A stretch of 54,753 nucleotides of DNA from Nemertoderma westbladi (taxonomy: Eukaryota > Animalia > Xenacoelomorpha). This document shows, one piece after another, positions 5,859 through 54,753 of this stretch. Location of the stretch: NCBI GenBank assembly GCA_032718475.1, contig JAUCBJ010001630.1, positions 1-54,753 on the forward strand. Direction: 5' to 3'. How positions within the stretch are numbered: position 1 is the stretch's first letter; each line of letters starts with the position of its first letter. The position numbers and the translations under genes were made by a program. The notes below the pieces were generated by a model that ran no database searches, was not told the origin of the DNA, and worked only from the letters and a program-made list of their open reading frames with translations.

Positions 5859-5958
5859 TATGAGTCATAGTCTATGCATCAGTGCCTCAGTGAGGCATAG
5901 TCTATGCCTCAGTGCCTCAGTGAGGCATAGTTTAAGCCTCAGTGAGGCATAGTCTATG
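5859..5958. repeat. Palindromic 22-bp satellite, left part of the array split by the BEL insertion (continues 21343-21575)
   Basis: AGTGAGGCATAGTCTATG abuts the LTR and CTATGCCTCAG resumes at 21343. Confidence 0.9.
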
Positions 5959-7125
5959 TGTTCGCGCTTTTAAGACCTGTGGCAGTTTAACCCGCCAAAT
6001 CTATATGTCTTCTAGGTTATAAATCGACTTTAGCCTATGACAAGTATTTGACACAAATAAATCCAACATTAGCCGAAGCCAGTCTATGCGCGACCATTCA
6101 CCCGCTGGATATACACGGGAGACTGGATTCGGATGCTTTAATTTGATTGCGGTGCAGGCCTACCGTACTATTCGATTGATCGTTAATATATAATCCCTGA
6201 CAAATATCATTCACTTTCGGGAAATATTAGCAGTTCCTTTAGGACGTGGCGCTCTATCTATATAAACAGAGCTATGGCTTACACTAAACACAACGGAATG
6301 GATTATAAGTTACACATAAGGCGCATTCTTTAGGAGATGCTTTGTTACGCGGACAAGCACATACAGACTATTGCACACCGCTGCACACTGAATTGCCGAT
6401 AGTCACTGATTTTAATCATATATAAAGAGAATAGCAACCGACATTTGTAGGGCCTATAAAATAGCATTCAATTCACTACAAACCACGATAATATAAGTCG
6501 CAATTGCTATATGTAACCGGTCTCTCTAACCTTAGTGTATCAAGAAGATCGGGGTTTCTGATCGTTTATCGTTATTCTCCAAATAACAATATGTAAACAA
6601 CTGATACAATTAATAACAAACAGTAAATAGCAGTAAATAATGTGCAATACAGCAGTAGGTACCGTACCGTACCGTACCGTACCGGTAACAGTTATGTGTT
6701 CTTATAATTAAAGCCGTTCTAATGTTGGAATAATTCAGAATAATTCCATAGCCGATGTTCTAGGCTCTGGAAAAACCAACACACTGAACCCTGTGAGCTG
6801 TTGCAGGTAGCTTTCAACACAAAGAGGAAAAGCTCTCATTGGCAGAGCTCCATATTCCACAGATTCCACGAATGTCTAAATGCCGAACTATTCGGGTTTT
6901 TGCAGCCCTTAGCCAACACACAGGATGAATCACTCTGCTTGGTTGACCTTGCTCTGGTTGGTGGATCGAACAGAACAAAGAGGCCATACGTACAGCAAAT
7001 CAGCCAATCAGCCGGTAGCTTGCATCATTTGAGTTAGGGAGTTTTTCTTTAGAGTATTTGAGCGCATTGAGGGAAACTGGATTGCGAAGCAAAAGGGCCA
7101 GTTATATCCCACAAAAGCTTTTACA
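5959..7125 (-). repeat. 3' LTR of BEL element (1167 bp)
   Basis: TGTTCGCG...TTTTACA; I found only about 3 substitutions and one 1-nt indel versus 20177-21342. Confidence 0.95.
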
Positions 7126-7135
7126 CCGCTCCCAG
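7126..7135 (-). other. Short polypurine tract-like sequence (GGGAGCGG) next to the 3' LTR
   Basis: Minus strand reads CTGGGAGCGG|TGTAA. Confidence 0.55.
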
Positions 7136-11498: not shown

Positions 11499-14400
11499 TT
11501 ACGTTATGGAGTCCCTAGATATTTGTCGGATTAGGGAAGTGGTCGTAGGAAGAGTATCTTGCCTTCCATAGTTTCCGGACAGTTTTCGGTCTCTTTCCAG
11601 TAAACATAAACGACCAGCTGGGCGATTGAGTGGTTGTGTTACTTTCTCCGCTCCCTTGGCCTGTCTAATCTTAGCCGGGGTAAGATGAGGAGGCCATTCA
11701 TCTTCTTCTTTGTAGAGGAAGTCAGGTCCGCCTAACCAGTCTGGAGTATCTACCAGTTCTTGTGGAGTAGCTCCCCTGGAGGCGATGTCTGCTGGATTGA
11801 TCGTTCCGGGGCAATGTCTCCATTGATCCATCGTTGTGCGACTGAGTATAATAGCTACTCTGTTGGTAACGAAGACGCTGAACTGACAGACTTCATTGGT
11901 TATATACTCCAACACGAGTAAAGCGTCGGTCCAATAGACAGTTTTCTCCAACGGATAATCGATCTGTTCTGTTACATTCCGGCCGATGGCTGTAGCGTAT
12001 AGAGCCGCTTTTAACTCCACTCGAGGAACTTTCAACTTGTTGTTTATCAATGCCTTAGAGGTAACCAAGGCGACCTTGATTCCATCCGGAGTTTCCACTC
12101 TTAGGTAGGCTACTATACCTATTCCCATATCGCTGGCGTCTCTAAACACATGGAGTTGATAGGAATACGTAGGGAGAACATGACCAAAATATGAACGGGA
12201 AATTATAAAGTTCTCGATGGCTGGTAGAGAATCTTCCCATTTCATCCACTTCTTTAATAATTCTCCCTTAAGTGGATCGTCCCATGAGTGGTTTTCAAGC
12301 CACATTTGTTGTACTAAACTCCGAGCAATCAATATAACTGGGCTAATAAATCCCAATGGATCGAAATAAGTGCTCAGGATACTTAAACAAATCCGTTTAG
12401 TCCGAACTGGATTATCTCGCTGTTTTAGCTGGAAAAACAGGATATCTCTCTCTGTGTCCCATTTCAAACCAAGTGTCTTGGTTTCTGGAAGATCATCTTT
12501 GATTAGATCTAGGTCTTTCGCTCCTCGATCTTCTACCGGGATCGACTCCAGAAACTCATGGGAGTTGCTGGTGAATTTAGTTAATCGAAATCCACCTCTT
12601 TTTAAGCACTCTACCGTTCCTTTAGCGACAGCAATGGCTTCTTCGACTGATGGAAGGGACTTTAGATTGTCGTCCATGTATATATCCCGTTTGATGTTGT
12701 CAATCACCTCTTTAGAGAAGACTTCTCGGTTGTCATCCGCAGTGGTGCGCACCACTGAACAGGCGTTTGAAGGGCTTGAGATTATCCCAAAAGCCTGGAT
12801 GGTCATCCAGTACTCCACTGGTTTCTGGTTGAGGTCTCCTTCAGGCCACCACAGAAATCGTAGGCTATCTCGATCCCTATCCAGCGCCTTGACCTGTAAG
12901 AACATGCCTTCTATATCTGAGGCGAAAGCGATTGAATATTGTCTTAATCTTAAGAGTATTCCCAACAAGGATTGGAGTAAGTTGGGTCCGGGTAACAATT
13001 CGGAATTAAGGGATTGGCCCATATAGAGGGCGGAGCCGTCAAACACCACTCGTACCTCATGGGGTTTACTGGGTTTGGGAACGTAATGGTGAGTTAAATA
13101 ATACATTCTCTCAGTTATAGGTGTTTCTTCCGGTACTCGCTCCACATATCCCTTGCTAATAAATTTCTTCAACTGCGTTTGATACATTTCTTTAGCTGAA
13201 GAATTTGCCGTAAGGCATTGATGTAGTTGAGCAATTCTTTTCTCCGCCAAGGGTCTGTTGTTTATGAACTTTGGTTCTCGCTTTCGGAAAGGTAGACCGA
13301 TTTCATATCTACCTTGATCTTTAAGAAAACGTGTAGTTGTCTCTTGGATCTGCTTGGCTCTTTCTTCTTCTACGGATAGGGCCTTATCGTAGGAATTGGG
13401 CTCTACAGCCTCTTGAGTAAAGAATCGTACGGCGTGTTCATCCCGAGTCTTGGCATTACAACGTTCAATGACGTCATTCAGTTCGTCGTTATAGTCGTCT
13501 CGTTCTGATGGACGGAGTAGCTGACATAAGTTCACTTGGTTTTGCCAAGTCTCGTTTTCCTTAAGGAGATCAATGGTATTCTCCTCATCGAAGAGTTGGT
13601 GGACATCGTCATTATTTGAGGAGTATGGTGTTCCCTCAGTTGGATCGTCTAACTCACTGCTCTCAACTTCCCATTCTCTTACCTGATATACCTGATCTTT
13701 CGGTAATCTTTCCATGAGAGTTCTACGGGAAGGGCCAGTAAAGTACCAACCCACTCTAGTTCTTCCCGCATAAGCTTGTAGTGGTTGCGGTTGAGCAGGC
13801 CGTTTCTCCAATGTCTCGAGCGCTTCATGTGCGTTTTGACCGATGAGTATTTGCACTCCAGGGTAATCGGTGTTGAATCTAGGTATTTCGAGCTGCTGGG
13901 TGAAATCGTCCTCATCCCAGTTATAAGGTTCCACTTGGCTGGTAGCGAAGTTCTTTATCGCAACCATTTTTACTGACCTTATACTATGTTCTCCTAGTTC
14001 ATCCTGGGGGGTGGACAACGCACCTACATAATAATCCGCTATTACTGTAGATTTCCAAACCTGCATAATTCCTGACATGTTTAGCTTAGTTCGGAACTTG
14101 GGTTGTCCAGCAAAGATGTCTTCGGCTAGTTCTTTGTCGATGAATGTTCCTGTACTACCGGAGTCAAGAAGGGCGTTCACTATATAACTCCTTTTAGGTC
14201 CGTGGACCCTTAACTGTACTACAGGAAATTCTCGGATTCCTACATTGGAAGTTGGCGCTTTCCAAGATGGTTGTCGATCAGAAGTAGTTAGGGTGAGGTC
14301 GCTGTCTGTGTCTTTTTCATACGTAAGTGCTCGATACACTGCGGTATTTATCATGTAACAGGATTCATCTTCGTCGGAGAATTCATCCGTATAGAATCCT

Positions 14401-17400
14401 TCCATCTCAGAACTTTGGTCAGTATCGTTCACATCACTGAATTGGACATGTAGTTCGGAATCACTTACCTGACTCGGGCTGTTTCGTTCGAATTCAGTGT
14501 GCAACAAGATATGATGTTTCGCACCGCACTTTGCACACCTTGTGTCGGAGTAACAGGTTCGCCGTTGGTGTCCTTGTCTGAGGCAATTATAACACAACCG
14601 CTTATCCCACATGACTTCCCGTCTCTCCGTTAATGATTTCTTCAGGAATTCATCACACATATTCAAACGGTGGGTCCCGTCACATAGCGCACATTTCGGT
14701 TTGATGTTACTTATCTTATTTTGAATAACATTGTGCACACTCGTTCTTTCTTCGGGCTTTCTCACCTGAATTCTCTTGGGAGACGTAGGAGGAGTTTTTC
14801 TTACCTGTTCTCTCCTGTCATTGGTTCGAGACTTGAATTTACTTACCTGTTCTTTAGGCGTTTTATTGACATAATAAGATCTTTCAGTGTCTTTCCCGCT
14901 ATCCTCTCCTTGAGAAGTCTGGCTTTCGCCGTCGTCTGTATAACACACTGGTGTTACCTTTCTCCTAGAAACGGGTTTCTCACTTACCTTGTTTTCCGGT
15001 GTCTTCTCTCTGGACTGCTTTAGGAGCTGTAATTTCACTTCTCCATCTAAGAATGACATGAGATCAGCCATGGTAGGGTCTCGTCGTTGTTGTTCCATCA
15101 TATATAACACTTTCTTATCCCAGCGTGTACCTACTCCACCCTTCGGTAAATTAGAAGCCACGGCTCCAATAACCATAGAACTCTGATATTCATGAGACTT
15201 ACCTAACCAATCTAATTGTCTACAGATCTCTTGAATCTCATCGGAAAACTCTATTATCCCGCTGCTAATGAACTTTCGGGGCGCTACTAATTTTGCATAT
15301 AAATATTTAGCTATGTTATTCCTATTACCATACCTGATGTTTAGTGTATCCCAAACTTGTCTTAATCCATCTGGATGTCCAATAAACTTTAACGCCATTA
15401 ACTTGGGAGATCCTTCCAAGCACTCGATGAGGAATCTAAGTTTCTCTCCATTAGATAGTACAGAGTTCTGTATGTTATCTTTGTAATATTCATTAAAAGG
15501 TAACCATTTCATCTCATCTCCATTGAACTTGACTATCTCTCCCACCTTTACCGCTTGACGGGCTTCGGTTCTAGCCATTTGCCGCGTAAAACTTTCTTGG
15601 GCCATTGTGTTATTTAATATCGAGTTATCGGTATATAAATTTCTCGGATTATTATCAAGTCTATATGGGATATCATTGTCAACAGGTTTATAATTACCCT
15701 TAATAGGGTTTACTATAGGAGTTTCCACTTCGCTAGCAGTATAGATGCGTGTAGGCTCCACACCTTGCGCATGAAATACTTCAGACCTAACAGGTTGACA
15801 CATTGTTACCGGGGTTGGTGGTATACTTCTTTGTGTATTTACTAATTTATCGCGTTCTAACGCGATACTTTGCTGCACTTCTTGCAACTCTAACCTACTT
15901 TCCCTTACTGTGCCCTTGAATTGCTGAACAGTCTCCTGCATCTGCCCGAGCAGGAGATCCATCCCCCGTCGTCTCTCATCCACCCACTCGACCGCCGAAG
16001 CGGGAGCCGCCAACGTTGTAGCGGGCCGACGAGGGACAACGGGCGACAAATCATTAATATTTCGCTCGGAGTCCAGGACATGAACATTTTCAAGGGTGGT
16101 TCTGTGTGGCACAGATAGCTTAGTGCTGTGCAGAGGGAATTTAGAGGTAGGTTCAGGGAGTACAGGTGTCTCTATCACCGAAGGGGTGGCTTCGGGAACA
16201 GGCCTAATTATTTCAGGCTCATCTACTATAGTAGGGAGTCTTTCTATTTTAATTATTTGGTCTGTGGGTTCTGTACTACCTAAGTTTGTGTTATTTAGTT
16301 GCTTTCTAACAGCTGGGGGCAAATCAGGCAATTTCTGACGGTGGGATATTCTTCTACGTCTGCTTAGACGAGATCTATTTCCTCCGCCTTCAGTATCGGT
16401 GGTATCGCCTTCCTCAGATGATGTATATCCCTGTCTTTTGGGAGTAGATCGACTCATCATCTGCATATTACTAGCTGTTAACTGTTTATTGAAGTTGTCT
16501 TGCCTCTCTTGAAGATTTTCCAACTCTAGTTGGGTTGTCTCTTCAGATGCCTTCCGTTCTGCTTCTGCCACTGCTAGCTTTCTTTCCGCTTCGGCCGCTG
16601 CCACTGCCGCTGCTGCTGTCTTTCTATCTTCTATACGTTTTTTCTTTACTTGTACTTCTTGAACCTTAGCGATGCGGATGCTTTCATTGAATTTAGCTTG
16701 GTTCGCAGCTAACCTATCCACATCGATTGAGTCCAACACAAGCTTGACTCCTTCACTATTAGGGCTAAGTCCATCTAGTCTTCTCCTCAACTCTTCATCT
16801 CCTACAAAACGTTGATAGTCCGACAGATAGATGTCAATAGCATCCCTCTTATGCGGTTTCTCCACCGCCGCTTCACTTTCCACTTGGGAAAATGTGGCGT
16901 CTGTGGATTCTCCAAGGGTTGAGCGCTCCGCTAACTGAGATTTCCACGGGGCAGTTCTTTGAACTTGGAGACTCACCCGCTGTAACCAAGTTTTTACGGC
17001 AACTTGCAACGACGTGTCCTGTTTTCTTTTCGAAGCCTCCTCAAAGGCCGATAGGATTAGTCTGATTCTTAGAATTCTTTCTCGAACTTGATAAAGTAGT
17101 TCTCCCTGCTCTTGAGGTCCTTGTGATTGTCTAAACAATTGTTCTTCTAATCGCTCCATGGAGCTGAAGAATCCCTGTACGTATCCAGCTGCGGACCTCT
17201 TCCACACAGCTGGATCGATGGTTTCCTTGATTACTCCCATCCTGTTTATGTCTTCCCAGGCAGCTTCTGATAAATCAAACGGGAGTCCGGGTCCGGGGAA
17301 GTTCCATTGCGACTCGACAATAGACTTCAGTTCTTCCCTTGTGTATCCCGCATAACTATCTTTAGTCGATCGCTTATTTCTCGCCCAATCGATCTGGTGT

Positions 17401-17795
17401 TCTTCCACCGCAATCAATAACCTAGTGAGTACGGCTGCAGGAAGGATGAGAAGGGGGTCCGAATAAACCGCATCTGTCATCTTTGCTCCGTGCTCGGGTG
17501 TCAGCTCTACAGTATCCGCACTACTGGAGCTGTCGGGCCGCTGAGAAACAAGTTCTTGGCTCGCGGGTTGTTGCTGTTCTGCTGCTTCTTGGTCCCGCTT
17601 GACCTGAGCTCTAGTGCCTATGACAGACCTACGGTGTTGGACTAGCCTAGGGTCTGATATTACTACTGGAGGGATGATCTTTCTTACAGTAGGAGGTGAG
17701 TTGAACTTCGGTCTCACACGTTCCACACTCCTGTCTGGGTCACAGATGGTTGTATCTAAGAGACTGTCTGACAGGTTTTGCTTTGTGTCAGACAT
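11499..17795 (-). CDS. gag-pol: BEL/Pao Gag-protease-RT-RNase H polyprotein lacking integrase
   Basis: Gag region (KFNGDEMKWLPF), three Cys/His knuckles (CALC..H....C, CYNCLRQGH....C, CAKCGAKHHILLH), LLDSGS protease, RVVFDGS/DIEGMFLQV/YMDD RT, HVFRDAS...ELKAA...WTD...NPADIASRG RNase H. Confidence 0.95.
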   Translation of the reverse strand: MSDTKQNLSDSLLDTTICDPDRSVERVRPKFNSPPTVRKIIPPVVISDPRLVQHRRSVIGTRAQVKRDQEAAEQQQPASQELVSQRPDSSSSADTVELTPEHGAKMTDAVYSDPLLILPAAVLTRLLIAVEEHQIDWARNKRSTKDSYAGYTREELKSIVESQWNFPGPGLPFDLSEAAWEDINRMGVIKETIDPAVWKRSAAGYVQGFFSSMERLEEQLFRQSQGPQEQGELLYQVRERILRIRLILSAFEEASKRKQDTSLQVAVKTWLQRVSLQVQRTAPWKSQLAERSTLGESTDATFSQVESEAAVEKPHKRDAIDIYLSDYQRFVGDEELRRRLDGLSPNSEGVKLVLDSIDVDRLAANQAKFNESIRIAKVQEVQVKKKRIEDRKTAAAAVAAAEAERKLAVAEAERKASEETTQLELENLQERQDNFNKQLTASNMQMMSRSTPKRQGYTSSEEGDTTDTEGGGNRSRLSRRRRISHRQKLPDLPPAVRKQLNNTNLGSTEPTDQIIKIERLPTIVDEPEIIRPVPEATPSVIETPVLPEPTSKFPLHSTKLSVPHRTTLENVHVLDSERNINDLSPVVPRRPATTLAAPASAVEWVDERRRGMDLLLGQMQETVQQFKGTVRESRLELQEVQQSIALERDKLVNTQRSIPPTPVTMCQPVRSEVFHAQGVEPTRIYTASEVETPIVNPIKGNYKPVDNDIPYRLDNNPRNLYTDNSILNNTMAQESFTRQMARTEARQAVKVGEIVKFNGDEMKWLPFNEYYKDNIQNSVLSNGEKLRFLIECLEGSPKLMALKFIGHPDGLRQVWDTLNIRYGNRNNIAKYLYAKLVAPRKFISSGIIEFSDEIQEICRQLDWLGKSHEYQSSMVIGAVASNLPKGGVGTRWDKKVLYMMEQQRRDPTMADLMSFLDGEVKLQLLKQSREKTPENKVSEKPVSRRKVTPVCYTDDGESQTSQGEDSGKDTERSYYVNKTPKEQVSKFKSRTNDRREQVRKTPPTSPKRIQVRKPEERTSVHNVIQNKISNIKPKCALCDGTHRLNMCDEFLKKSLTERREVMWDKRLCYNCLRQGHQRRTCYSDTRCAKCGAKHHILLHTEFERNSPSQVSDSELHVQFSDVNDTDQSSEMEGFYTDEFSDEDESCYMINTAVYRALTYEKDTDSDLTLTTSDRQPSWKAPTSNVGIREFPVVQLRVHGPKRSYIVNALLDSGSTGTFIDKELAEDIFAGQPKFRTKLNMSGIMQVWKSTVIADYYVGALSTPQDELGEHSIRSVKMVAIKNFATSQVEPYNWDEDDFTQQLEIPRFNTDYPGVQILIGQNAHEALETLEKRPAQPQPLQAYAGRTRVGWYFTGPSRRTLMERLPKDQVYQVREWEVESSELDDPTEGTPYSSNNDDVHQLFDEENTIDLLKENETWQNQVNLCQLLRPSERDDYNDELNDVIERCNAKTRDEHAVRFFTQEAVEPNSYDKALSVEEERAKQIQETTTRFLKDQGRYEIGLPFRKREPKFINNRPLAEKRIAQLHQCLTANSSAKEMYQTQLKKFISKGYVERVPEETPITERMYYLTHHYVPKPSKPHEVRVVFDGSALYMGQSLNSELLPGPNLLQSLLGILLRLRQYSIAFASDIEGMFLQVKALDRDRDSLRFLWWPEGDLNQKPVEYWMTIQAFGIISSPSNACSVVRTTADDNREVFSKEVIDNIKRDIYMDDNLKSLPSVEEAIAVAKGTVECLKRGGFRLTKFTSNSHEFLESIPVEDRGAKDLDLIKDDLPETKTLGLKWDTERDILFFQLKQRDNPVRTKRICLSILSTYFDPLGFISPVILIARSLVQQMWLENHSWDDPLKGELLKKWMKWEDSLPAIENFIISRSYFGHVLPTYSYQLHVFRDASDMGIGIVAYLRVETPDGIKVALVTSKALINNKLKVPRVELKAALYATAIGRNVTEQIDYPLEKTVYWTDALLVLEYITNEVCQFSVFVTNRVAIILSRTTMDQWRHCPGTINPADIASRGATPQELVDTPDWLGGPDFLYKEEDEWPPHLTPAKIRQAKGAEKVTQPLNRPAGRLCLLERDRKLSGNYGRQDTLPTTTSLIRQISRDSIT

Positions 17796-17924
17796 GTTTG
17801 TTTGTACAGTTGAATGCCTACTGCTATATTAAAGTTTAAGCAAGTCTAGTAATTCAGTATCACTGTTAGCCTAGTAATTAATTACCGATACTGCTACTCA
17901 GTGTAGCGTAATATATATATAATA

Positions 17925-18305
17925 TATTAGAATACCGGTATGCTTATAATATATATATATAAGTATTGTCACAGACTAGGTTTGTCACAGAATACCAGTA
18001 TATAATTTTAGCACAAATATATAAATATATATAATAGGCCTATCGTGAATACTGGTATACAGCTTACACTTATAGTATATATAAGTATAATTATTAACTA
18101 GAATTAATTACAGAATACCGGTATAATTTCAGCCTAAATTTATAAATATATAATAGGCCTATCGTGAATACTGGTATACAGCTTACACTTATAATGTATA
18201 TATATAAGTATAATTACAGACTAGAATTAATTACAGAATACCGGTATATAATTTAGCCTAAATTTATAGAAATAAATATAATAAGCCTATGGTAAATACC
18301 GGTAT
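17925..18305. repeat. ~120-bp degenerate tandem repeats in the BEL 5' UTR
   Basis: Recurring AGAATACCGGTAT...GGCCTATCGTGAATACTGGTATACAGCTTACAC. Confidence 0.7.
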
Positions 18306-19254
18306 GTCAATTATTTTAGAATAATTGAATTTCTGAAATTTTAGGGGTTACTTGGTTACTTTGCTTTACTTGATTACCGTTATTTAAGCAGTAGTCCAAC
18401 TGATATTTAGACCTAATTGTTGTAAGACAGGCCTACTATTTTATAAATCGGTTTGAGTTGATTTATAATATATATACCCGTTAAAATGGGTTTTTGTCAA
18501 TATTTGAAATAAATGTTATTATTTCTGGGGGGAGTCACTACACAGAAGCTGTGCGCTCTCAGTGGAGTGCTACTTGTTGGACACTAAAACAAATAATTCT
18601 AATTTACCTAAGTTACTTAATACTACAAATTACATACAATTCGGGTGAGATTACAATCTCTAAATAAACACAAAAATTACAAGTACGAATTTTTAGGGTA
18701 ATTTTACAAGAAGTCTACAAACCAGCCTAACAAAGGGTTAGAATATCTGGTTATTACAAAGGACAGGGTACTACGGTATTTGAAAATAATAAGTAGTAGT
18801 AAATATACTGCGTTGTCCAGATAGGAAAAATACCACCGTCTGACGACTTATAGCCGTATCGCTATAAGTACTACGTTATGTATCACGGAGTGTTCCTACC
18901 TAGAAGTTAATTACCGCGGTCTACCAGAACCAACGTGCCTATTAACCACTTTACAACACAAATATACTGCCCACACACTAATCACCTTCGGAAAGTACTG
19001 TACACTAAACCCTAAATTAGGTACAAGTACTTATACAACAAATAATCAGTAGTTAAAAATACTTGAACAGCTAAAAGAACCACGGTATCTGCTGGAGTGA
19101 TCGGGGCACAAAATCACCAGTCTTTACCTACGCCAAGCAGCCCTGATGTAGTACCGGGGTTAGTTTAACTATAACGGTATATATAACAAGCACAATTACT
19201 GTAGGAATAAACTTGGGGATATGAATGTTGCGAATAATCGCATAAACTCTGAAT

Positions 19255-19826
19255 AATAAATATTACGCTACGCGTACAGACTACTCAAACAAAATGCAGA
19301 CCAAATACTGACAGACTACTATCAAGCCTAAACAAACTACGGTATATGCAGACTCCGAAATGGTTAGTTAGTATGCGTTCTAACCCAGTAGTACGACTTA
19401 TTCTTTCGAGGGGGTTTACCTCACAGCTCTGGAAGCCCCTACGTTCCCAACTGGCACTTTATCGGACATACACTCTACACACACCGAAATCTCTTCAGAC
19501 CTAACAACAGCCAGACAAAATCCAGCCTACAAATTATCTAAGTAATAAATATTACGCTACCCGTACAGACTACACAAACAAAATACAGACCAAACGCTGG
19601 CAGACTACTATCAAGCCTAAATAAACTACAGTATATGCAGACTCCGAAATGGTTAGTTAGTATGCGTTCTAACCGAGTAGTACGACTTATTCTTTCGAGG
19701 GGGTTCACCTCACAGCACTGGCAGCCCCTACTTTCCTAACTAGTACTTTTTCGGACATACGCTCTACACACTCTACAGTCCCTTCAGACTTAACCACAGT
19801 CAGACAACAGTCCAGCCTACAAATTG
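19255..19826. repeat. ~290-bp tandem duplication in the BEL 5' UTR
   Basis: AATAAATATTACGCTAC...CAGCCTACAAATT starting at 19255 and again at 19544. Confidence 0.85.
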
Positions 19827-20165
19827 TCTGTACAATCTGAGCAGGCTTACACGCCTTCTGCTCAATACTGGCCTACAAATAAATAAAACTGACAGAAATA
19901 AGTAAGCTCCAAAAGAAACAAGGGGTGTACGTCAGTCCCTAATCTCTTAAACAGCCTACTGGTATACAATTTCACAATCGAATAATACTGCTGTACCTGT
20001 ACTGCTGTAGGTACCGGTCCGGGTGGTTAGGTAGTCAGGCCTACTAGGTACCGGTTGGCCGGTACTTCAGCTTTATTGCCTACTGCAATACAGAAGCTAT
20101 ATCTGTTATTGTTCTTACCAGAACAATAGTAAACTGTATTTATTGCCTACACTGCAATCAGAATT

Positions 20166-20176
20166 ATAACTGTTAC
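20166..20176 (-). other. Non-tRNA primer-binding site candidate GTAACAGTTAT
   Basis: Directly follows the 5' LTR on the minus strand, has no TGG, and is exactly complementary to ATAACTGTTAC within the LTR (20912-20902 on the minus strand). Confidence 0.55.
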
Positions 20177-21342
20177 TGTTCGCGCTTTTAAGACCTTTGG
20201 CAGTTTAACCCGCCAAATCTATATGTCTTCTAGGTTATAAATCGACTTTAGCCTATGACAAGTATTTGACACAAATAAATCCAACATTAGCCGAAGCCAG
20301 TCTATGCGCGACCATTCACCCGCTGGATATACCCGGGAGACTGGATTCGGATGCTTTAATTTGATTGCGGTGCAGGCCTACCGTACTATTCGATTGATCG
20401 TTAATATATAATCCTGACAAATATCATTCACTTTCGGGAAATATTAGCAGTTCCTTTAGGACGTGGCGCTCTATCTATATAAACAGAGCTATGGCTTACA
20501 CTAAACACAACGGAATGGATTATAAGTTACACATAAGGCGCATTCTTTAGGAGATGCTTTGTTACGCGGACAAGCACATACAGACTATTGCACACCGCTG
20601 CACACTGAATTGCCGATAGTCACTGATTTTAATCATATATAAAGAGAATAGCAACCGACATTTGTAGGGCCTATAAAATAGCATTCAATTCACTACAAAC
20701 CACGATAATATAAGTCGCAATTGCTATATGTAACCGGTCTCTCTAACCTTAGTGTATCAAGAAGATCGGGGTTTCTGATCGTTTATCGTTATTCTCCAAA
20801 TAACAATATGTAAACAACTGATACAATTAATAACAAACAGTAAATAGCAGTAAATAATGTGCAATACAGCAGTAGGTACCGTACCGTACCGTACCGTACT
20901 GGTAACAGTTATGTGTTCTTATAATTAAAGCCGTTCTAATGTTGGAATAATTCAGAATAATTCCATAGCCGATGTTCTAGGCTCTGGAAAAACCAACACA
21001 CTGAACCCTGTGAGCTGTTGCAGGTAGCTTTCAACACAAAGAGGAAAAGCTCTCATTGGCAGAGCTCCATATTCCACAGATTCCACGAATGTCTAAATGC
21101 CGAACTATTCGGGTTTTTGCAGCCCTTAGCCAACACACAGGATGAATCACTCTGCTTGGTTGACCTTGCTCTGGTTGGTGGATCGAACAGAACAAAGAGG
21201 CCATACGTACAGCAAATCAGCCAATCAGCCGGTAGCTTGCATCATTTGAGTTAGGGAGTTTTTCTTTAGAGTATTTGAGCGCATTGAGGGAAACTGGATT
21301 GCGAAGCAAAAGGGCCAGTTATATCCCACAAAAGCTTTTACA
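20177..21342 (-). repeat. 5' LTR of BEL element (1166 bp)
   Basis: Near-identical to 5959-7125, followed by TSD CTATG. Confidence 0.95.
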
Positions 21343-21575
21343 CTATGCCTCAGTGAGGCATAGTATATGCCTGAGTGAGGCATAGTCTATGCCTCAGTGA
21401 GTCATAGTCTATGCCTCAGTGCCTCAGTGAGGCATAGTCTATGCCTCAGTGCCTCAGTGAGGCATAGTCTATGCCTCAGTGCCTCAGTGAGGCCTAGTCT
21501 ATGCCTCAGTGCCTCAGTGAGGCATAGTCTATGCCTCAGTGAGGCTTAGTCTATGCCTCAGTGAGGCATAGTCTA
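21343..21575. repeat. Palindromic 22-bp satellite (another patch at ~21986-22118)
   Basis: AGTGAGGCATAGTCTATGCCTC units. Confidence 0.9.
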
Positions 21576-23790: not shown

Positions 23791-24668
23791 CCTTTACACA
23801 CTCAGCACTCCAGAAAAGTCATTGTCCAGATGATCGCAGAGAAATGCTTGAAGATCAGCAGCTACACAAACACTTACAGAACTGGTGACACTATTATAAT
23901 ATTGGTAGTAGTAAGATGAACCCATCCTCGGCGACAGTTTGGTCCTACTTCGCACCTTGGGTGTTAAGTAGGTCATTAATTAATCAACCAATTAATTAAT
24001 TGGTCGATTAAACAATTAATTAATTGTTTAATCAATCGATTTGTATCAAATAATGTTGCCAAAGGCAATTTAATTTGATACAAATCAATCAGATAGGGAC
24101 GCGAGATGAATAAATTGTACTACAACAAACGAAATATACAATACAATAGGCACTGTGCAATACAATATACAGTACATTTGTATTATTTTTGTCATACAGT
24201 AGAAGGTAAAGATAGAATTAAATAAATAGACGCAATCGAGGCCCAAAACATAAATTACCCTCACACAAAAATAAAGTGGCCCAGTTTGGCCCTGAGTCAT
24301 CCCTCAATAATCTGCGGTTGTTGGGCTCTTATTAACCGTAGCATGACTAACCCAAACATCAATGCATGAATGGGGCCTGCGTGAATGGGGCCTGCCACAG
24401 AGTTTAAATTATTCAAACCTATAGCTTCGTTATTACATCAATTCGTCCGAGAAATTATAATAAACATCTGCTCTTGCAATAGATTGCATTCTTCTTTCAC
24501 AACTCCATTCTAACCTCCCTCTATAATAGCCCCTAGTCACCGCATTCCCATTCATTCTCTAATTTTTATTTTTAAAAGTTTTATTTATTTTCATAAAAGT
24601 TTTATTTATTTAAAATTTTGTAAAATCATTCAGCGAAAATTCATAATATCAATTGACATTGCTATATA

Positions 24669-25718
24669 ATGCATAGAGATGAAAGATGTTTGGTTTGTAA
24701 TAAAGAAATGAGACAAGATAATCTATCTCGTCATATGGAAAGACATAGAAAGGATAAACTAATGGATCCATTACCAAAGAAATTTAAAAAATCCGAAGAT
24801 GTTTTTAGTGAAGATGAAAAGAAAAAGAGAGTTGAGCGTGATATTTTAAAGATAAAACAGACAATGGAAAATAAATTTCATAAAGTTATGAATATTTTGA
24901 AAGGGATACAAAAACAGTTACCCCTAGAAAATGATGAGAATTTGAGTGAGGAAGATGAAGAAGAAGAGGACGATGAGATGGAGAATGAAAATAGTGAGGG
25001 TCAAGATGAAGTTGAAGAGAGTGAAGTTGGGAACGAAGAAAGTGAAGATCAGAAAGATGACGAAGAAAGTGAAGGTCAGGAAGAGGGTGAAGATAGCGAA
25101 GGTCAGGAAGAGAATGAAGAAAGTGAAGAACAGGAAGAGGATGAAGAAAGTGAAGAACAGGAAGAGGATGAAGAAAGTGAAGAACAGGAAGAGGATGAAG
25201 AAAGTGAAGAACAGGAAGAGGATGAAGAAAGCGAAGGTCAGAAAGAGGATGAAGAAAGTGAAGGTCATGAAGAGGACGAAGAAAGTGAAGAACAGGAAGA
25301 CGACGAAGAAAGTGAAGGTCAGGAAAGTGAAGAAGATGATGAAAATGATAATAATAAGGAAATATTGAGACAATTACTTGGAAATAAGAATAAATTGCGG
25401 AAAATTATTAAACATTTAGAAGAGAATGGTGAAAATAAAGAAGAGATATTGAGACAAATATTAGGAAACAAAAATCAAATGCGGAAATTTATTAAACAAA
25501 TGGAAGAAAATGAGGAAAATAGAGAAGAGATATTAAGACAGGTTCTGGGAAATAAAAGTAAATTACTGAAAATTAATGAACAATTGAATAAAATTAAGAA
25601 ACTGTTGGTTAATGAGGAAGATGAAATTAAAGAAAATCAACCAGCTTTTACTTATTTTCGAAGACCTATGACAACAAACTCTCGTACAGTATTTGCCCGC
25701 GCAGGAGGACACTATTGA
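24669..25718 (+). CDS. C2H2-zinc-finger / acidic-repeat protein, 349 aa, intact
   Basis: CLVCNKEMRQDNLSRHMERH, basic PKKFKK patch, long E/D/S tract, C-terminal helical ILRQxxGNK repeats. Confidence 0.8.
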   Translation: MHRDERCLVCNKEMRQDNLSRHMERHRKDKLMDPLPKKFKKSEDVFSEDEKKKRVERDILKIKQTMENKFHKVMNILKGIQKQLPLENDENLSEEDEEEEDDEMENENSEGQDEVEESEVGNEESEDQKDDEESEGQEEGEDSEGQEENEESEEQEEDEESEEQEEDEESEEQEEDEESEEQEEDEESEGQKEDEESEGHEEDEESEEQEDDEESEGQESEEDDENDNNKEILRQLLGNKNKLRKIIKHLEENGENKEEILRQILGNKNQMRKFIKQMEENEENREEILRQVLGNKSKLLKINEQLNKIKKLLVNEEDEIKENQPAFTYFRRPMTTNSRTVFARAGGHY

Positions 25719-26127
25719 CATTTGTTTGTTTGAGTTCCTTTCATAATAGTATTAAAACTATTTATCCATAACAATTATATTAGTATTAGGACTATTTATC
25801 CATAACATTTATATTAGTATTAGGATTATTTATCCTTAATTATTATATTAGTATTATAAATGTATTTGCCAACAATATTTATTACTATTAGGTCTATTTA
25901 TTCAAGAAATTATATGTTTTTTATAATATATTTTGGAAAATTAGTCGACTAAGTCATAATTTTTAAAACTTTAAATAAGGGTGGAGTTATTTTATAAAGT
26001 TAAGAAGAGTGAATCAATGGAGGCAACCTGAAGTCTCATCTCTTGCCCTTTACTCATAAGACCGCACGTTAACTCCCAAGGTTGCATACTATCACTATAG
26101 CTGGGAGAGTCAAAGCTAGTGTACAGG

Positions 26128-26972
26128 AGTGAGGGAAGTGAGGCAGTGAGGAAGTGAGGGAAGTGAGGGAATGAGGGAGGCAGTGAGGCATAGTGAGGCA
26201 GTGAGGCGTAGTGAGGGAAGTGAGGGAAGTGAGGCAGTGAGGCATAGTGAGGCATAGTGAGGCATAGTGAGGCAGTGAGGCATAGTGAGGCATAGTGAGG
26301 CATAGTGAGGGAAGTGAGGGAAGTGAGGCATAGTGAGGCAGTGAGGCATAGTGAGGCAGTGAGGCATAGTGAGGCATAGTGAGGCATAGTGAGGCATAGT
26401 GAGGCATAGTGAGGCATAGTGAGGCAGTGAGGCAGTGAGGCAGTGAGGCATAGTGAGGCATAGTGAGGCATAGTGAGGCAGTGAGGCAGTGAGGCATAGT
26501 GAGGCATAGCGAGGCATATTGAGGCATAGTGAGGCATAGTGAGGCATAGTGAGGCATAGTGAGGCATAGTGAGGCATAGTGAGGCATAGTGAGGCATAGT
26601 GAGGCATAGTGAGGCAGTGAGGCAGTGAGGCATAGTGAGGCATAGTGAGGCATAGTGAGGCATAGTGAGGCAGTGAGGCAGTGAGGCATAGTGAGGCATA
26701 GTGAGGCATATTGAGGCATAGTGAGGCATAGTGAGGCAGTGAGGCAGTGAGGCATAGTGAGGCATAGCGAGGCATAGTGAGGCATAGTGAGGCATAGTGA
26801 GGCATAGTGAGGCATAGTGAGGCATAGTGAGGCATAGTGAGGCATAGTGAGGCATAGTGAGGCATAGTGAGGCATAGTGAGGCATAGTGAGGCATAGTGA
26901 GGCATAGTGAGGCATAGTGAGGCATAGTGAGGCAGTGAGGCATAGTGAGGCATAGTGAGGCATAGTGAGGCA
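26128..26972 (+). repeat. 10-bp satellite (AGTGAGGCAT)n with 8-bp AGTGAGGC and 9-bp AGTGAGGGA variants
   Basis: Direct reading of the array. Confidence 0.95.
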
Positions 26973-27035
26973 GAGCCTCACTATCTGATAGTGATGATCT
27001 CATCATCACTATCACTCAGCTTCTCTATCTCTATT

Positions 27036-31270: not shown

Positions 31271-31274
31271 ACGA

Positions 31275-31916: not shown

Positions 31917-31939
31917 AAATGCAGCTGCAATGCAGCATG

Positions 31940-32420: not shown

Positions 32421-32439
32421 ATTTATCGGGAACCAAACA

Positions 32440-34969: not shown

Positions 34970-35013
34970 TTTATCGAATAATATATTTAGATAAACAAAA
35001 GTTAAATGATTAA

Positions 35014-35486: not shown

Positions 35487-35488
35487 AC

Positions 35489-36743: not shown

Positions 36744-36745
36744 AC

Positions 36746-38008: not shown

Positions 38009-38049
38009 TATTAAAAAATACTTTTTTCGCAGTGTTTCAGTTTGCCTTT

Positions 38050-38574: not shown

Positions 38575-38575
38575 T

Positions 38576-44369: not shown

Positions 44370-44402
44370 TGTTGCAACATTATTGAAAATTGTTACAAAA
44401 TA

Positions 44403-46945: not shown

Positions 46946-47659
46946 AAAGTAAATAATAACAGTAAATGAAGCAAAATAGGTCAGGCTACAGTATAACTCC
47001 GATATTTATCGCCTTTTTCTCTCGAGGTTGGATGGAAGAGTGAGTGGTGAATTGTGAGGAGTTATAACAGTCCCGAGTTCGAACCCAGTTGAATATTTTG
47101 TTATCTGAAAAATTGCGAAATTAAATTTAGTTACTGGTGAAAAATAGTAGAAGTTACCTGTAGACACCTCTAGCGCCTGTAAAATAAAGGTTGGTGAATA
47201 TGGAAATACTGGTTGGTGAAAAATTGCGATTTGAAAAATAGTAGAAGTTACCTGATGCTAAGTGTAGACACCCGAGCACCTGTAAAATAAAGGTTGGTGA
47301 TTGGATGGAGTACTAGCGTTGGGTGACTAATAACGCCTCTAGCAGAAGATGCGGGAACTTGAGAAGTTGCCATGGTTACGGTTGAAATGCTGGCATCTGA
47401 TTGGATGAAATAATAACGACCACTGGTAAAGGTTGAAATGTTGGCTTCTGATTGGATGGGGTACTAAAATTGGACGGTAATGCTGGGCTATGGGTGACCA
47501 TGGCGCCGTGTCATACAATTGTATACTACTACCGTGGCGAAGAGTTTGTCTCTGAAATGGGGAACCATCGAAGGATGAATAATGGTTTTGGAATAGAGAT
47601 CAGTCATAAGGATTTGAGCTTCTGGCTGGGCTAAAGCTGCTTCTTCTCTCTCGCCCATT

Positions 47660-48745
47660 TTGATGTGCTTCTCCTCAAGCTGATTTTCCTCCGCTTGTCG
47701 TTGGAAGCATTCGTCCAAAAACTCTTGCAGAGAGTAGGTTCATCCGAGTTCGATATCTTCTTCGAGATTCTGGATTTCCCGATCGAACTGTGGTAAAGCT
47801 AATTCTTTTACCGCTTGGACTTGCTGCTGCAATTTACGTTTATCTAAACAATCGTAGGTTCCTTTTCCGAACTTTTGTCGAATAGCGTCTAATGCGTTTC
47901 GTACAACGCTCTCCTCCACCTCGGTGACGGGTTGTATCGGGGTTAAACCGGGACGATTATACGGGTTGAACGGCGATATTAAATGTCTGCGTCCCAATCC
48001 GGCTAGGTAGGATGGGCGAATATCTAGAGAGCCCACTACCGGAGTGCCACCGACTAATTGTTCGGGTAACACTAGATCTTTGAACAATGAGTACAGTTCA
48101 GGAGGATCCGTCATACTATTAGGATGAAGAGTCTGAGGTCTCACCTGGGAATGAGGAGGTCTGACCGAGTATTCCGGAACTCTGATCATCGGTTTATTTA
48201 AGGATCGTTTGAGTCGAGCGAGCGCGGGTGATACGTCGAACAAGTTTCGCTCGAAACTCCCGTAAGTATAGCGAGTAAACTGTGTTTAGCACAACGTCTC
48301 CGCGGATGTTTATGTCTTTCCGTTTGTTGGTTGGGCCTAGGGCATTCATCGCAATAATACCAAAGACGCACGTCTTGTAGGGGAAACGCTGGTGCTCTTT
48401 CTCCAGTTTTACAATATTCCTCCATCTGTTCGAATCTATCCGGTACAACAGGTAGCGGTCGATCGGCGGTGAGATACATCATAGTAAAATAGAGTCATTT
48501 GAGTTCGATCATAGGGTTATGATGTATACCTTGAGGATATCGCGTTTCTAGATTTTGTTGACTGGCAACATTGAGATATGTTTCTCTCAAGAATTCCAAA
48601 TATTCGTTGAAGTCACTGCGTTTTTCCGGTTGTTCAACGTCTTCTCTTTCGAGTTGGTTTCGAATAGAATTCTCATGTTCGATTCTCAGTTTATCGTTCC
48701 GACTCCGCTGGGTATGATATTTAAATAGGATCATTTCCCTTTCGG
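47660..48745 (-). pseudogene. Decayed env-position ORF of BEL copy 2
   Basis: Fragments 48495-48770, 48194-48482 and 47740-48243 homologous to 7330-8445. Confidence 0.65.
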
Positions 48746-49659
48746 TGAGTAGATGAATACAACAGAGCATGTCTGGGGACTAGGATCCTTAATTCTAGGA
48801 AATTTGTCCTTTTAAGAGTATCGGTAAGTGCTACGATATCTTAATCGACTAGAATTTTAAAGGATCTGAATTTTAACAGATTTTGGATTTCTAGATTTTC
48901 TTGGTTTACAAACTCCTTAGAGTTTATTTGTCTGCATTTACTCTATTATAACATTTGTTTTAATAGATTTTTGTAAATATTAAATAGTTAATATTTAAGA
49001 TGGGCACAGATTTATTCCAGAACTTGTCTGGGGACGTTAACTACTGATTCTAGAATTTTGTCTTTCAAGTATATTGGTGGGTGCCGCGATATCTTAATCG
49101 ACTAGAATTACAGATGGTCAAAGGGTTTAACAGATTTATTTTGCGTTTTACGCTACTGTTAAAGGGACATCACGCTACTATATGTATTATTTAATATACG
49201 GTATGAGAGCAATATTGCAAGGAGCAATGTCAGTGAGAAGAGGCAAGTCGTTTCCAAGGTCTACCCAGAGCTTGGTTTAGCCGAGACACGAGGATCTCAA
49301 CTTTGCATTCCTAATACTCTACTTACCAATAATACTTGAGTATAGTAGGAGCTTTATTGTACTTTAATAAGTACGGACATTTCATCTTACTGTAGTCACG
49401 TATTTTTAATATGATACGGACAGTAAGGAAAGAGAAAATAATTATTTCTCGCCGTTACACTAAATATAATGATAAGTAATTAAGTAATAAACACGAATAT
49501 ATATTGCACTAATCTACTAAATAATCGCTAAAATAACATTCTACTAAATAAAATTAAAGAAAACGATTATAATAAAATTACATAATAATACATACATAAA
49601 TATAAAAATAATAAAAACAGATATAAAATAATGTAGTCACACACCCACTCCAGAAGCTG

Positions 49660-52600
49660 TTACGTTGGGGAGTCCCTAGATGTTCGTTGGATTAGGGAGT
49701 TGGTTGTGGGAAGAGTATCTTGCCTTCCATAGTTTCCGGATAGCTCTCTGTCTCTTTTCAGTAAACATAAACGACCAACTGGGCGATTGAGTTGCTGTGT
49801 TTCGAATACAATTCCAGGTTTCTTAAAGTTACGTCGCATGACGACGAGTTCTACCGATCGCACTAAACCATCATCGGATATATGAGTCTCGATGATACGA
49901 CCTGTCTGCCACCGCTTACGTGGAAGATCTGATTCCACAATAAGGACCATGTCTCCGGCGCTGACGTTTTCTTGCTGCGCAAACCACTTGGTTCAAAGTT
50001 GTAGCGTAGGCAGATAGTGTTTTTCGAAATGGTCAGCGAAACGACGGGATAATAACTGCATGAGGTGCCAAGTTTGTCGGCAGTATTCGTCTCCATCCGT
50101 GATTTCCGATTGTGGGAGCATGGCTACAGGTTTCTTCAGTAGGAAATGCGCGGGTGTTAGCGCTTCTAGGGAGTCGGGACTCGATGAGACTGGCATAAGC
50201 GGTCTCTCGTTAAGATAGGCGGCGATTTCTTCCATTAACGTCCGCAAAAGTTCGTCGGTGAGATATGCGCGGAACGGCACTATAAAGTGAAATGCGGTCT
50301 TCACGCTCCGTATTAATCTCTCCCAACTTCCTCCCCACCAAGGGGCGTTGGCGGCGTTGAAGGTCCAGCTAGATGCTGTTACCCTTAGCTGATCGTCCAC
50401 CTGGCTTTGGTTCAAATCTTTAACGTAAGCTTTGATCCCATTATTGGCGTCAATAAAGTTCGTTCCCTTATCAGATCTCATCGTGTTGCTAGTTCCAAAG
50501 CAAACGATCTGTCGGCGTAAACTCAGTATGAAGCTGTTGGTAGATAGATCGTTCACCATATCTAGATGGATCGCTCTACAAGTCATACAGACAAAGATGA
50601 CACACCATCGCTTGACTATAGTCCTAGCACGATATACTTCAATAGGGCCAAATAAATCCACACCCGTATTAGTAAAAGGGGGTTCATAGAAGCTTACTCG
50701 TTCCCTAGGTAATTCTGCCTCTCGCTGTGTTAAAGGCCTACTGAATGCTTTCCTACAGGGTATACAGTACCTAAGAACTTGGTTCAGAGCTCTACGGGGG
50801 TTATGGAAATAATAGCGAGTTCGAATTTCGCTAAGAACTCGTTCTCTACCAGCATGGTAAAGCCTACTGTGAACATCTACAATCATCTTGATTTGTATTT
50901 CAAGATTTCTAATGAGTATGGGATTAGTTAGTCTCCCTCCAACACTTATTAACCCATCTATCATTGTGCTAGAGAAACGATCCCTTAAGCGCATCTGTGG
51001 ATTTCTCAACAACAGGAAATACTTATCGGAATCTTCATAGCATTGCAGGAGTCTCAGTATCTGCTTATTGGTTTCTTCATGCTCTTGATAGCTGATCTTC
51101 TCCGTCAGAAACCTATCCGACACTTTATATTTGGGAAGATCTTTAATAGCATGGACCTGCTCGGATGTCAGTGGAGCAGTATCACTAGCGATCTTCGTCC
51201 TGGAGTAGTGATAATGGAAGCATCGCTTCAAATACACGACGGCCTTACAAAGCCGATTCCAGGAGCTATAGTGATTTATCGCTCTCTGCAGGAGAGGTGA
51301 GAGTCCCTGCGAGACGTCTGGTGTTCCAGATTTCCAGTCTCTTTCTCTGATGTCTATAACAGATTTATTTGTGGCGGGGGAGTTTAGATCCACAGCGTCG
51401 TCCCCAGAGATGTGTAGTACAGACAGACCTATCATGGGTTTAAATAACTTTGATTTACTCGTCCGGGTTTTAGGTTTGACTTTCTCCGCTCCCTTGGCTT
51501 GTCTAATCTCAGCTGTGGTGAGATGAGGAGGCCATTCATCCTCTTCTTTACTTAGGAAGTCGGGTCCACCTAACCAGTCTGGAGTATCTATCAGTTCTTG
51601 AGGAGTTGCTCCTCTGGAGGCGATGTCGGCTGGATTAATCGTCCCAGGGCAATGTCTCCATTGATCTACAGTAGAGCGACTAAGTATAATGGCTACTCTG
51701 TTGGTAACAAAGACGCTGAACTGACAGACTTCATTGGTTATGTACTCCAAAACGAGTAAAGCATCGGTCCAATAGACAGTTTTCTCCAGTGGATAGTCGA
51801 TCTGTTCTGTTACATTCCGGCCGATGGCTGTAGTGTATAGAGCCGCCTTTAACTCCGCTCGAGGAACTCGTAGTTTGTTGTTTATCAAGGCCTTAGAGGT
51901 AACCAAGGCAACTTTAATTCCATCAGGAGTTTCAACACTTAGGTAGGCTACTATACCTATTCCCATATCGCTGGCGTCTCCAAACACATGTAGTTGATAG
52001 GAATACGTGGGGAGAACGTGACCAAAATATGAACGGGAAATCGTAAAGTTCTCGATGGATGGTAGAGAATCTTCCCATTTCATCCACTTCTTTAGTAGTT
52101 CTCCCTTAAGTGGATCCTCCCACGAGTGGTTTTCAAGCCACATTTGTTGCACTAAGCTCCGAGCAACCAATATAACTGGGCTAATAAATAAGTCGAAATA
52201 AGTGCTCAGGATACTTAGACAAATCCGTTTAGTTCGAACTGGATTATCTCGCTGTTTTAGCTGGAAAAACAATATATCTCTCTCCGTGTCCCATTTCAAA
52301 CCAAGCGTCTTGGTTTCCGGAAGATCGTCCTTGATAAGGTCCAGATCTTTAACACCTCGGTCTTCTACCGGGATCGATTCCAGAAACTCACGGGAGTTAC
52401 TAGTGAATTTGGTTAGTCGAAATCCACCGCGTTTCAAGCACTCTACCGTTCCCTTGGCAACATCAATGGCTTCTTCCACCGATGGGAGGGACTTTAAATT
52501 GTTGTCCATGTATATATCCCGTTTGATGTTGTCGATAACCGCTTTAGAGAAGGCGTCTCGGTTGTCATCAGCAGTGGTACGCACTACTGAACAAGCGTTC

Positions 52601-54753
52601 GAGGGGCTCGAGATGATCCCGAAAGCCTGGATGGTCATCCAGTACTCCACCAGTTTTAGGTTGAGATCTCCTTCAGGCCACCACAGAAGTCGTAGGCTGT
52701 CTCGATCCCTATCCAGCGCCTTGACTTGTAAGAACATGCCTTCTATATCCGAAGCGAAAGCGATAGAATATTGCCGTAATCTTAATAGTATTCCCAACAA
52801 GGATTGGAGTAAGTTGGGTCCCGGCAACAATTCGGAGTTCAGGGATTGGCCCATGTAAAGGGCGGAGCCGTCGAACACTACCCGGACTTCGTTGGGTTTA
52901 CCGGGTTTGGGAACGTAGTGATGTGTTAGATAATACGTTCTCTCTGTGATGGGTGTTTCTTCCGGTACTCGCTCCGCGTATCCCTTATCGATAAATTTCT
53001 TCAGCTGGGTCTTATACATCTCTTTAGCTGAAGCATTGGCCGTAAGACGCCGATGTAGTTGCGCGATTCTCTTCTCCGCTAAGGGTCGGTTATTTATAAA
53101 GTTGGGTTCTCGCCGTCGGAACGGAAGACCAATCTCATAGCGACCTTGATCTTTAAGAAAACGGGTAGTCGTTTCCTGAATCTGCTTGGCTCTCTCCTCC
53201 TCGACGGACAAGGCCTTGTCGTAGGAATTGGGCTCTACGGCTTCTTGAGTAAAGAATCGTACGGCGTGTTCATCGCGAATCTTATTGTTGTATCGATCTA
53301 TCACCTCGTTTAATTCATCGTTGTAGTTGAATTGTCCGCCATGATTGATGAGATGGCACAGGTTTACTTGGTTTCGCCAAGTTTCATTTTCGGTGAGGAG
53401 ATCGATTGTATTTTCCTCGTCGAATAATTGGTTAATATCGTCATTATCTGAGGAGTATGGGGTTCCCTCAGTTGTGGTTTCTCCTTCACTAATTTCTTCT
53501 TCCCATTCACTCACTTGATGTATCCTTTCTGGAGGAAGTCTTTCCATCAGTGTTCTACGGAAGATCAAGTGAAGTACCAACCTACTCTCATTCTTCCCGC
53601 ATATGTTTGTAATGGTTGCAGTCGAGCAGGCCGTTTTTCTAATGTCTCTAGCGCCTCGTGCGCATTTTGGCCGATCAGTATCTGTACCCCTGGGTAGTCG
53701 GTGTTGAATCTAGGGATATCATGCTGCTGGGTAAAATGGTCTTCATCCCAGTTGTAAGGTTCCACTTGGCTGGTAGCAAAGTTCTTTATCGCCACCATTT
53801 TTACTGACCTTATGCTATGTTCTCCTATTTCATCCTGGGGAGTGGACAACGCGCCTACATAGTAATCTGTAGCTACTGTGGATTTCCAAACCTGCATAAT
53901 TCCTGAAAGGTTCAACTTAGTTTGGAACTTGGGTTATCCAGCAAAGATGTCTTCGGCTAGTTCTTTGTCGATGAATGTACCTGTGCTGCCGGAGTCAAGG
54001 AGGGCGTTTACTATAAAACTCTTACCTAGCCCGTGGACTCTCAGCTGCACTACTGGGAATTCCCGAATTCCGACGTTGGAAGTTGGCGCTTTCCAAGATG
54101 GTTGTCGGTCCGGAATAGTCGGTTGCGCTTCGTTAGCGGTTTCAGTCTCATACGTAAGCGCTCGATACACTGCGGTGTTTATCATATAACAGGATTCGTT
54201 TTCGTCGGAGAATTCGTCCGTGTAGAATCCTTCCATCTCTGAGCTGTGGTCAGGTCGTTCACATCACTGAATTGGACATGTAGTTCGGACTCACTTACCT
54301 GACTCGTGCAGGTTCTTTCAAATTCTGTGTGCAGCAAGATATGATGTTTCGCGCCGCACTTAGCACACCTCGCGTCGGAGTAACAGGTCCGCCATTGGTG
54401 TCCTTGTCTGAGACAATTATAACACAACCGCTTATCCCACATGACATCATGTCTATCCTTTAGGGATTTCTTCAAGAATTCATCACATCCACTCAAACGA
54501 TGGGGCCCGTCGCACAATGCACATTTGGGTTTGATGTTACTTACTTTACCCTGGGTTGTGTTGTGCACACGTGTTCTTTCCTCGGGCTTTCTTCCAGGAA
54601 TTCTCTTAGGAGACGTAGGAGGAGTTGTTGTTACCTGTTCTCTCCTGTCACTGGTTCGAGGCTTAAATTTACTTATGTCCTTACGTGTTTTGTTGACATA
54701 ATAAGATCTTTCGGTGTCTTTCCCGCTGTTCTCCTCGTGGGAGGTCTGGCTTT
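49660..54753 (-). pseudogene. gag-pol: BEL gag-pol pseudogene including integrase
   Basis: RT with YMDN, RNase H, HHCC (HSRLYHAG...CIPC), GVDLFGP / SDKGTNF / WERLIRSVK; TGA at 49993; frameshifts near 53575, 53930 and 54240. Confidence 0.92.

Follow-up and report, generated by a model that had tools for sequence, protein, structure and literature searches.

The window analysed here, a contig of 54,753 nucleotides from the xenacoelomorph Nemertoderma westbladi (GenBank assembly GCA_032718475.1, contig JAUCBJ010001630.1), harbors an LTR retrotransposon on its minus strand together with a second, partial copy of the same family. The two LTRs were delimited by self-comparison, and the LTR pair and the 5-bp target-site duplication CATAG fix the ends of the 5' LTR.

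21343..21347, minus strand, upstream target-site duplication CATAG, within a tandem array
20177..21342, minus strand, 5' LTR of 1166 nt, beginning with TG and ending with CA
11499..17795, minus strand, Gag-PR-RT-RNase H frame (PF03564, PF05380)
7126..7133, minus strand, polypurine tract GGGAGCGG
5959..7125, minus strand, 3' LTR of 1167 nt, with TG and CA ends as well
5954..5958, minus strand, downstream target-site duplication CATAG
47655..54753, minus strand, second family copy, truncated where the window ends, carrying the integrase domain PF17921 and showing no LTR

The element is of BEL/Pao type, being classified so by its proteins only. A domain search returned PF05380 (E 6.6e-36) and PF03564 (E 8.8e-11), and inspection of the frame at 17795-11499 revealed the YMDD motif and the acidic motifs of RNase H, whose activity is predicted. 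A protein search with the RT-RH region gave 687 matches, the best of which were BEL/Pao polyproteins of 41-44% identity; PF05380 was present in all of the best 120 that were listed, and the named matches further down came from cnidarians, molluscs, echinoderms and fish. These results confirm the BEL/Pao assignment of an earlier note on this DNA, which had been made from the letters and their translations. The polypurine tracts of the relatives are of the GGGGCCGG type. Compared with the second copy, in which PF17921 follows PF05380 in the family order PR-RT-RH-IN, approximately 1.7 kb holding the integrase is missing from the window copy, which is therefore non-autonomous. Its two LTRs are separated by four differences in 1167 nt, as befits the young element that the earlier note had proposed, with the caveat that this copy has lost its integrase.

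The leader (17796-20165) extends over 2.37 kb with only five ATG triplets and contains a 290-nt tandem duplication (19248-19829); the arm of the leader stem described below is duplicated near 20092, and some copies are without one unit, as seen from a 77-nt skip. Within the 3' region of the element, a nearly palindromic, non-coding insert (9314-10451, 91% self-inverted) carries G/C-run ends and TTAA flanks and is MITE-like.

Elsewhere in the window, a Polinton/Maverick-like gene set at 34397-46313, partly duplicated at a spacing of 1257 nt, includes an rve integrase (42637-43794, PF00665) and, by eye, a P-loop ATPase fragment (~44400-45200) as well as frames resembling an adenovirus-type protease and a capsid protein. 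A frame of 381 aa at 31849-32994 with a TBP domain (PF00352, E 2.7e-9) sits behind a sequence that by eye resembles the end of a B-family polymerase, and adjoins LINE and Gypsy-like fragments at 29770-31916. At 45300-45370 (minus strand) a tRNA-like A/B-box was noticed by eye, possibly the head of a SINE, for which ARAGORN made no call, and inverted repeats of 1203 nt, 99% complementary, flank a 10-nt tandem array at 24323-28230.

The junction of the 5' LTR with the leader and its counterparts in both LTRs are the features around which the present analysis revolves.

20166..20176, minus strand, primer-binding site (PBS) GTAACAGTTAT, immediately behind the 5' LTR (offset 0) and lacking TGG
20902..20912, minus strand, predicted self-primer core ATAACTGTTAC in the 5' LTR
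6685..6695, minus strand, the same 11-mer ATAACTGTTAC in the 3' LTR, predicted by analogy with Tf1 to be the template regenerating the primer sequence

The earlier note had remarked that no TGG follows the 5' LTR, that the exact 11-nt complement of the sequence found there instead lies inside both LTRs, and that the pairing ends at 11 nt on both sides; all of this holds for the window copy, in which 20912-20902 and 6695-6685 are each complementary to 20176-20166. Its chance estimate of about one in thousands is likewise close to the result of dinucleotide shuffling, in which the exact 11-mer was held by 4 of 5000 shuffled LTRs and any 11-nt complement at offsets 0-5 by 27 of 5000. The 11-mer and its complement have three matches in the window against 0.07 expected, with the caveat that the two LTR matches amount to a single event, and none of 100 shuffles reached three. 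Pairing beyond the 11 nt did not rise above shuffles in the window copy (231/500). No canonical donor/acceptor pair at the primer site yielded a duplex, so no intron is placed there. ARAGORN found no tRNA in the window, an Rfam scan of 17800-21400 gave one chance match (E 0.51), and a scan of viral contigs confirmed nothing.

Priming of this kind is described for the fission yeast element Tf1, which, according to the accessible part of PMC7175516, primes from its own first 11 bases after RNase H cleavage and whose three-duplex "pretzel" has been described (bioRxiv 10.1101/2022.12.06.519325 and PMC7175516, both in partial text). As in Tf1, Tf2 and Tj1 of the Tf1/sushi group, the window element has no tRNA site and an LTR-adjacent PBS that complements 11 nt of its own LTR, and, as far as the sections at hand describe Tf1/sushi, a second duplex between the PBS-adjacent leader and the LTR is also predicted here. 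However, Tf1/sushi elements are Ty3/gypsy chromoviruses, whereas the window element has BEL/Pao proteins and is therefore not a member of that group. The resemblance to the Tf1 primer suggested in the earlier note turned out to be reversed, because in Tf1 it is the PBS, lying downstream of the LTR, that opens with the five bases ATAAC (PMC11042837, accessible portion), while in the window element ATAAC begins the primer, on the opposite strand. The window element further differs from Tf1 in the 725 nt between primer core and LTR end and in that its start site and cleavage are predictions, and the splice-built primers predicted below for its relatives are not described for Tf1/sushi in the available parts of the sources.

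In the ICTV profile, Belpaoviridae replicate by tRNA priming, with a PBS of 18 nt that is directed at tRNA-Arg or tRNA-Gly of the host (PMC8742986). The window element resembles them in the Gag-PR-RT-RH-IN order of its family, an LTR within 0.2-1.2 kb, the polypurine tract and an animal host, but a TGG site is missing from it as from 13 of the 17 relatives. Self-priming has been predicted for Tcn1 and for the Copia TAR lineage in the consulted part of PMC6317226; the rule applied there to TAR (Houba, Osr-1), a complement of at least 10 bp to the own LTR located 0-5 nt from the LTR end, also picks out the window element, TAR being a plant Copia lineage of independent origin. Fungal GalEa Copia elements are similar in that a tRNA PBS was lost in a lineage whose relatives keep one, but they possess a local hairpin, and a complement in the LTR was not found in the text available from PMC5445492. 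The statement of the earlier note that no self-priming BEL/Pao element is known agrees with a literature search outside subscription papers, Repbase/GyDB entries, figures and bioRxiv supplements: none is named in the accessible parts of PMC3601003, PMC13524379, PMC5341516, PMC2864245, PMC4600332, PMC8220671, PMC5443660 and PMC5445492, and a term search of the available text of PMC3118150 and PMC554778 gave no mention of PBS or tRNA.

DNA contigs reveal that the family is very high-copy. In the seven leader variants listed (7 of 26), the sequence rejoins at 20166-20170 with at least seven PBS bases kept and never shows TGG, so the non-TGG site is not a local deletion. An extra base disrupts the clean 11-bp register in six of these seven, and in two the leader would reach 20928-20920 by pairing past a loop of 9 nt, a hint that the RNA may begin upstream of 20912. 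On the LTR side, no substitution is listed for 20901-20957 in four DNA runs from three studies, and a block at 20903..20943 (minus strand), which terminates at the primer core, is common to diverged LTR families that carry one and the same organism label. In three X4 contigs, 239-376 nt long, the match is confined to the stretch from 20903 to 20942-20947, and the diverged families have a different base at 20902.

Folding of the RNA provides the features that would flank the central duplex.

20362..20377, minus strand, LTR arm of a predicted U5/leader stem, 15/16 pairs, -25.9 kcal/mol
20145..20160, minus strand, leader arm of this stem, 5 nt behind the PBS
20306..20314, minus strand, possible weak, U5-IR-like arm that would pair at 8/9 positions with the end of the LTR (20185-20177)

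Of the three duplexes of the Tf1 pretzel, the central and the leader-side ones have predicted counterparts, the LTR/leader stem of 15/16 bp being equalled by none of 200 shuffles, and the LTR-end one (20314-20306 with 20185-20177) was equalled by 27 of 200, no better than chance. Among 12 relatives no leader stem reached 0/200, the best standing at 16/200. In local folding, a duplex gain of 11.7 kcal/mol is set against opening costs of 3.0-5.6 kcal/mol for the PBS and 3.5 kcal/mol for the 5' 11-mer; in global folding, with a model that excludes pseudoknots, the primer:PBS pairs had a probability of about zero and the forced form lay 7-9 kcal/mol above the minimum. An X4 contig carries four changes in the LTR stem arm, three of which by eye keep or restore pairing with the window leader and one of which breaks a pair, with the caveat that C-to-T and G-to-A changes readily keep wobble pairs.

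Two signals bear on the ends of the transcript.

20918..20923, minus strand, TATAAG, resembling a TATA box, which begins only 11 nt before the 11-mer
20628..20633, minus strand, ATTAAA, candidate poly(A) signal, with a second ATTAAA at 20360-20355

A TATA box is spaced 25-31 nt from the start of transcription, so that TATAAG at 20923 does not fit a start at 20912 and predicts one near 20893, past the 11-mer; C-A at -1/+1 of 20912 fits an initiator. An RNA start exactly at 20912, as the earlier note had supposed, can be proposed from these signals only tentatively and is somewhat doubtful. The set X5, tentatively taken as RNA, gives no coverage of 20897-20953, a gap that counts neither for nor against such a start.

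Relatives were surveyed at 94 loci and 9 further regions, from which a main count of 17 elements was drawn, one per family, in each of which the LTR pair determines where the 5' LTR ends. Same-family duplicates (L004, L025, L086, L090), L023, whose repeat spans coding sequence, L115, whose LTR pair does not enclose the BEL match, and all loci without both LTR ends stayed out of this count. Four of the 17 (L064, L091, L092, L114) have TGG sites and match their own LTR over at most 6 nt. All 13 non-TGG relatives, against none of these four, match their own LTR: in ten (L003, L005, L015, L017, L020, L040, L052, L063, L080, L081) the PBS complements, perfectly and over 10-15 nt, the junction of two exons that would arise from the predicted splicing of an intron inside the LTR (GT(A/G)AG...YAG, 71-451 nt); in L122 it matches a predicted intron junction with one mismatch, as judged by eye; and L045 (10 nt) and L057 (12 nt, low complexity) possess contiguous matches like that of the window element. 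Such a junction was also recognized at 12 loci without a fixed LTR end (L001, L007, L016, L024, L027, L043, L047, L053, L042, L049, L088, L084), three of which duplicate counted families and all of which lie outside the main count. Blind searches without a fixed LTR end were rejected and kept from the main count on account of false matches, with hairpins in L002, L082 and L084.

When 13 LTRs were swapped against 13 PBSs, foreign spliced matches were at most 8 nt long, except within the related trio L017/L040/L052, and the window LTR matched 12 foreign PBSs over at most 7 nt. The observed length was reached in 0/300 PBS shuffles for 11 elements, in 1/300 for L020 and in 259/300 for the TGG control. 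Pairing beyond the core among 11 relatives was best in L003 (0/500 shuffles), L015 (8/500) and L045 (35/500). L080 and L081 share the donor position and differ in three exon bases, as they do in the three partner bases of the PBS. Covariation of PBS and LTR, which the earlier note had named as a check, is seen between these two and in each relative's PBS tracking its own LTR; within the window family, PBS and LTR variants come from DNA contigs that do not link them to one copy.

Several of these loci (L080, L081, L084, L086, L090-L092, L114 and L122) are animal-type BEL/Pao elements in bacterial MAG assemblies, most likely owing to host contamination. The TGG element L064 carries TGGTAGCAGAGC at 406-420, a site assigned to tRNA-Met in the accessible part of PMC5445492, and is placed among non-TGG lineages, which implies that the priming mode was switched more than once or that TGG priming was retained there.

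RT-RH trees were computed with FastTree (115 rows) and IQ-TREE (38 rows), leaving out the 7 of 95 loci without one segment of 330 aa. The window family is long-branched and falls, at weak support (85/87, 82/92), between a large clade and the outgroups with TGG, outside the clade of informative relatives, so that their evidence bears on the window lineage indirectly. L045 and L057 branch off separately within the spliced clade, so the intron may have been lost there more than once.

Since the 13 non-TGG relatives match their own LTR and the four TGG elements do not, the primer is very probably made by the element itself, of whatever kind it may be. For the window element, the probable form is self-priming in cis, with the leading portion of the RNA serving as primer in the manner of Tf1. 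The RNA would start at, or up to ~30 nt upstream of, 20912 and fold back, bringing 20912-20902 into a duplex with the PBS, which side stems would keep accessible; a cut after 20902, by RNase H in analogy with Tf1, would yield the new 3' end that primes minus-strand DNA, and the primer sequence would be restored from the 3' LTR copy. The integrase would be supplied in trans by other copies, for example that at 47.6-54.7 kb, and most relatives would obtain the same primer by splicing out the LTR intron. The interpretation of the earlier note is supported in part as a whole; its claim that self-priming takes the place of tRNA priming is supported by the flanking stem, the non-TGG copies and the 13 of 13 relatives.

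Among the alternatives, the best placed, albeit unlikely, is a primer acting in trans, in which a short LTR RNA would run from the start to the LTR poly(A) signal, with its intron removed in those relatives that have one. This RNA would anneal to the PBS of a genomic RNA that is itself unspliced, and cleavage would then create the priming 3' end. Such a primer would account for the survival of the intron, given that a genome RNA spliced at both ends loses its intron in one cycle, and intron-less LTR copies, sought for 17 junctions, were absent from the loci examined; nine of the ten spliced relatives have a poly(A) signal 8-104 nt behind the acceptor, and in so high-copy a family LTR transcripts could be plentiful. 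Yet the intron could persist as well if only the 3' copy stays unspliced, and for the intron-less window element pairing in cis is simpler and has the precedent of Tf1.

Priming by a host RNA (a tRNA half, a spliced leader or another small RNA), with the LTR match being incidental, is improbable. The PBS would presumably pair in part with a GUU anticodon loop, which counts in its favor. A use of spliced-leader RNA as primer by Oikopleura Tor elements, a further lead, was not confirmed by a literature search. Half-tRNA priming exists in Copia lineages, according to the available text of PMC6317226. Nevertheless, a mature tRNA requires TGG, the exact LTR complement would be left unexplained, and the PBSs vary among the 13 relatives, each tracking its own LTR.

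Still less credible is priming from the 3' end, in which polyadenylation would take place at the 11-mer of the 3' LTR and the tail of the RNA, once trimmed, would act as primer: the end of the shared LTR block at the 11-mer, an AT-rich hexamer ~18 nt upstream and the U-rich sequence that follows would suit it, but neither AATAAA nor ATTAAA precedes the 11-mer, the two copies of ATTAAA follow it at distances of 269 and 542 nt, and in the relatives the poly(A) signal comes after the primer site. Equally remote is the reading of the two sites as copies of a near-palindromic protein-binding motif, or as chance, without a role in priming, for although they are identical at 8 of 11 positions as direct repeats, an 8-nt copy recurs at 21323-21316 and 1 of 156 foreign LTR/PBS pairs reached 10 contiguous nt, each of the three positions that differ agrees with the complement, the match sets in precisely where the LTR ends, further copies of the core TAACWGTTA are absent from the 54.7 kb, the relatives follow the same logic with unrelated sequences, and the element would be left with no primer site.

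With the element-made primer as the preferred reading, a broader picture is slightly favored on the whole, in which a large BEL/Pao clade of aquatic animals would have swapped tRNA priming for a primer assembled by the spliceosome from two LTR exons, making reverse transcription dependent on splicing; the intron-less window element, L045 and L057 would then hold ready-made primers, through repeated intron loss or independently, and the window lineage would have converged on a Tf1-like pretzel. What is new here is a deep-branching, intron-less BEL/Pao lineage with a Tf1-like side stem.

A BEL/Pao case would place self-priming in all three LTR superfamilies and explain why PBS finders leave many BEL/Pao elements blank, and such priming would free the elements from the tRNA supply and from silencing by tRNA fragments. 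The splice-built primer, if true, would connect reverse transcription with splicing in a novel way, and it raises the puzzle of how an intron survives through copying.
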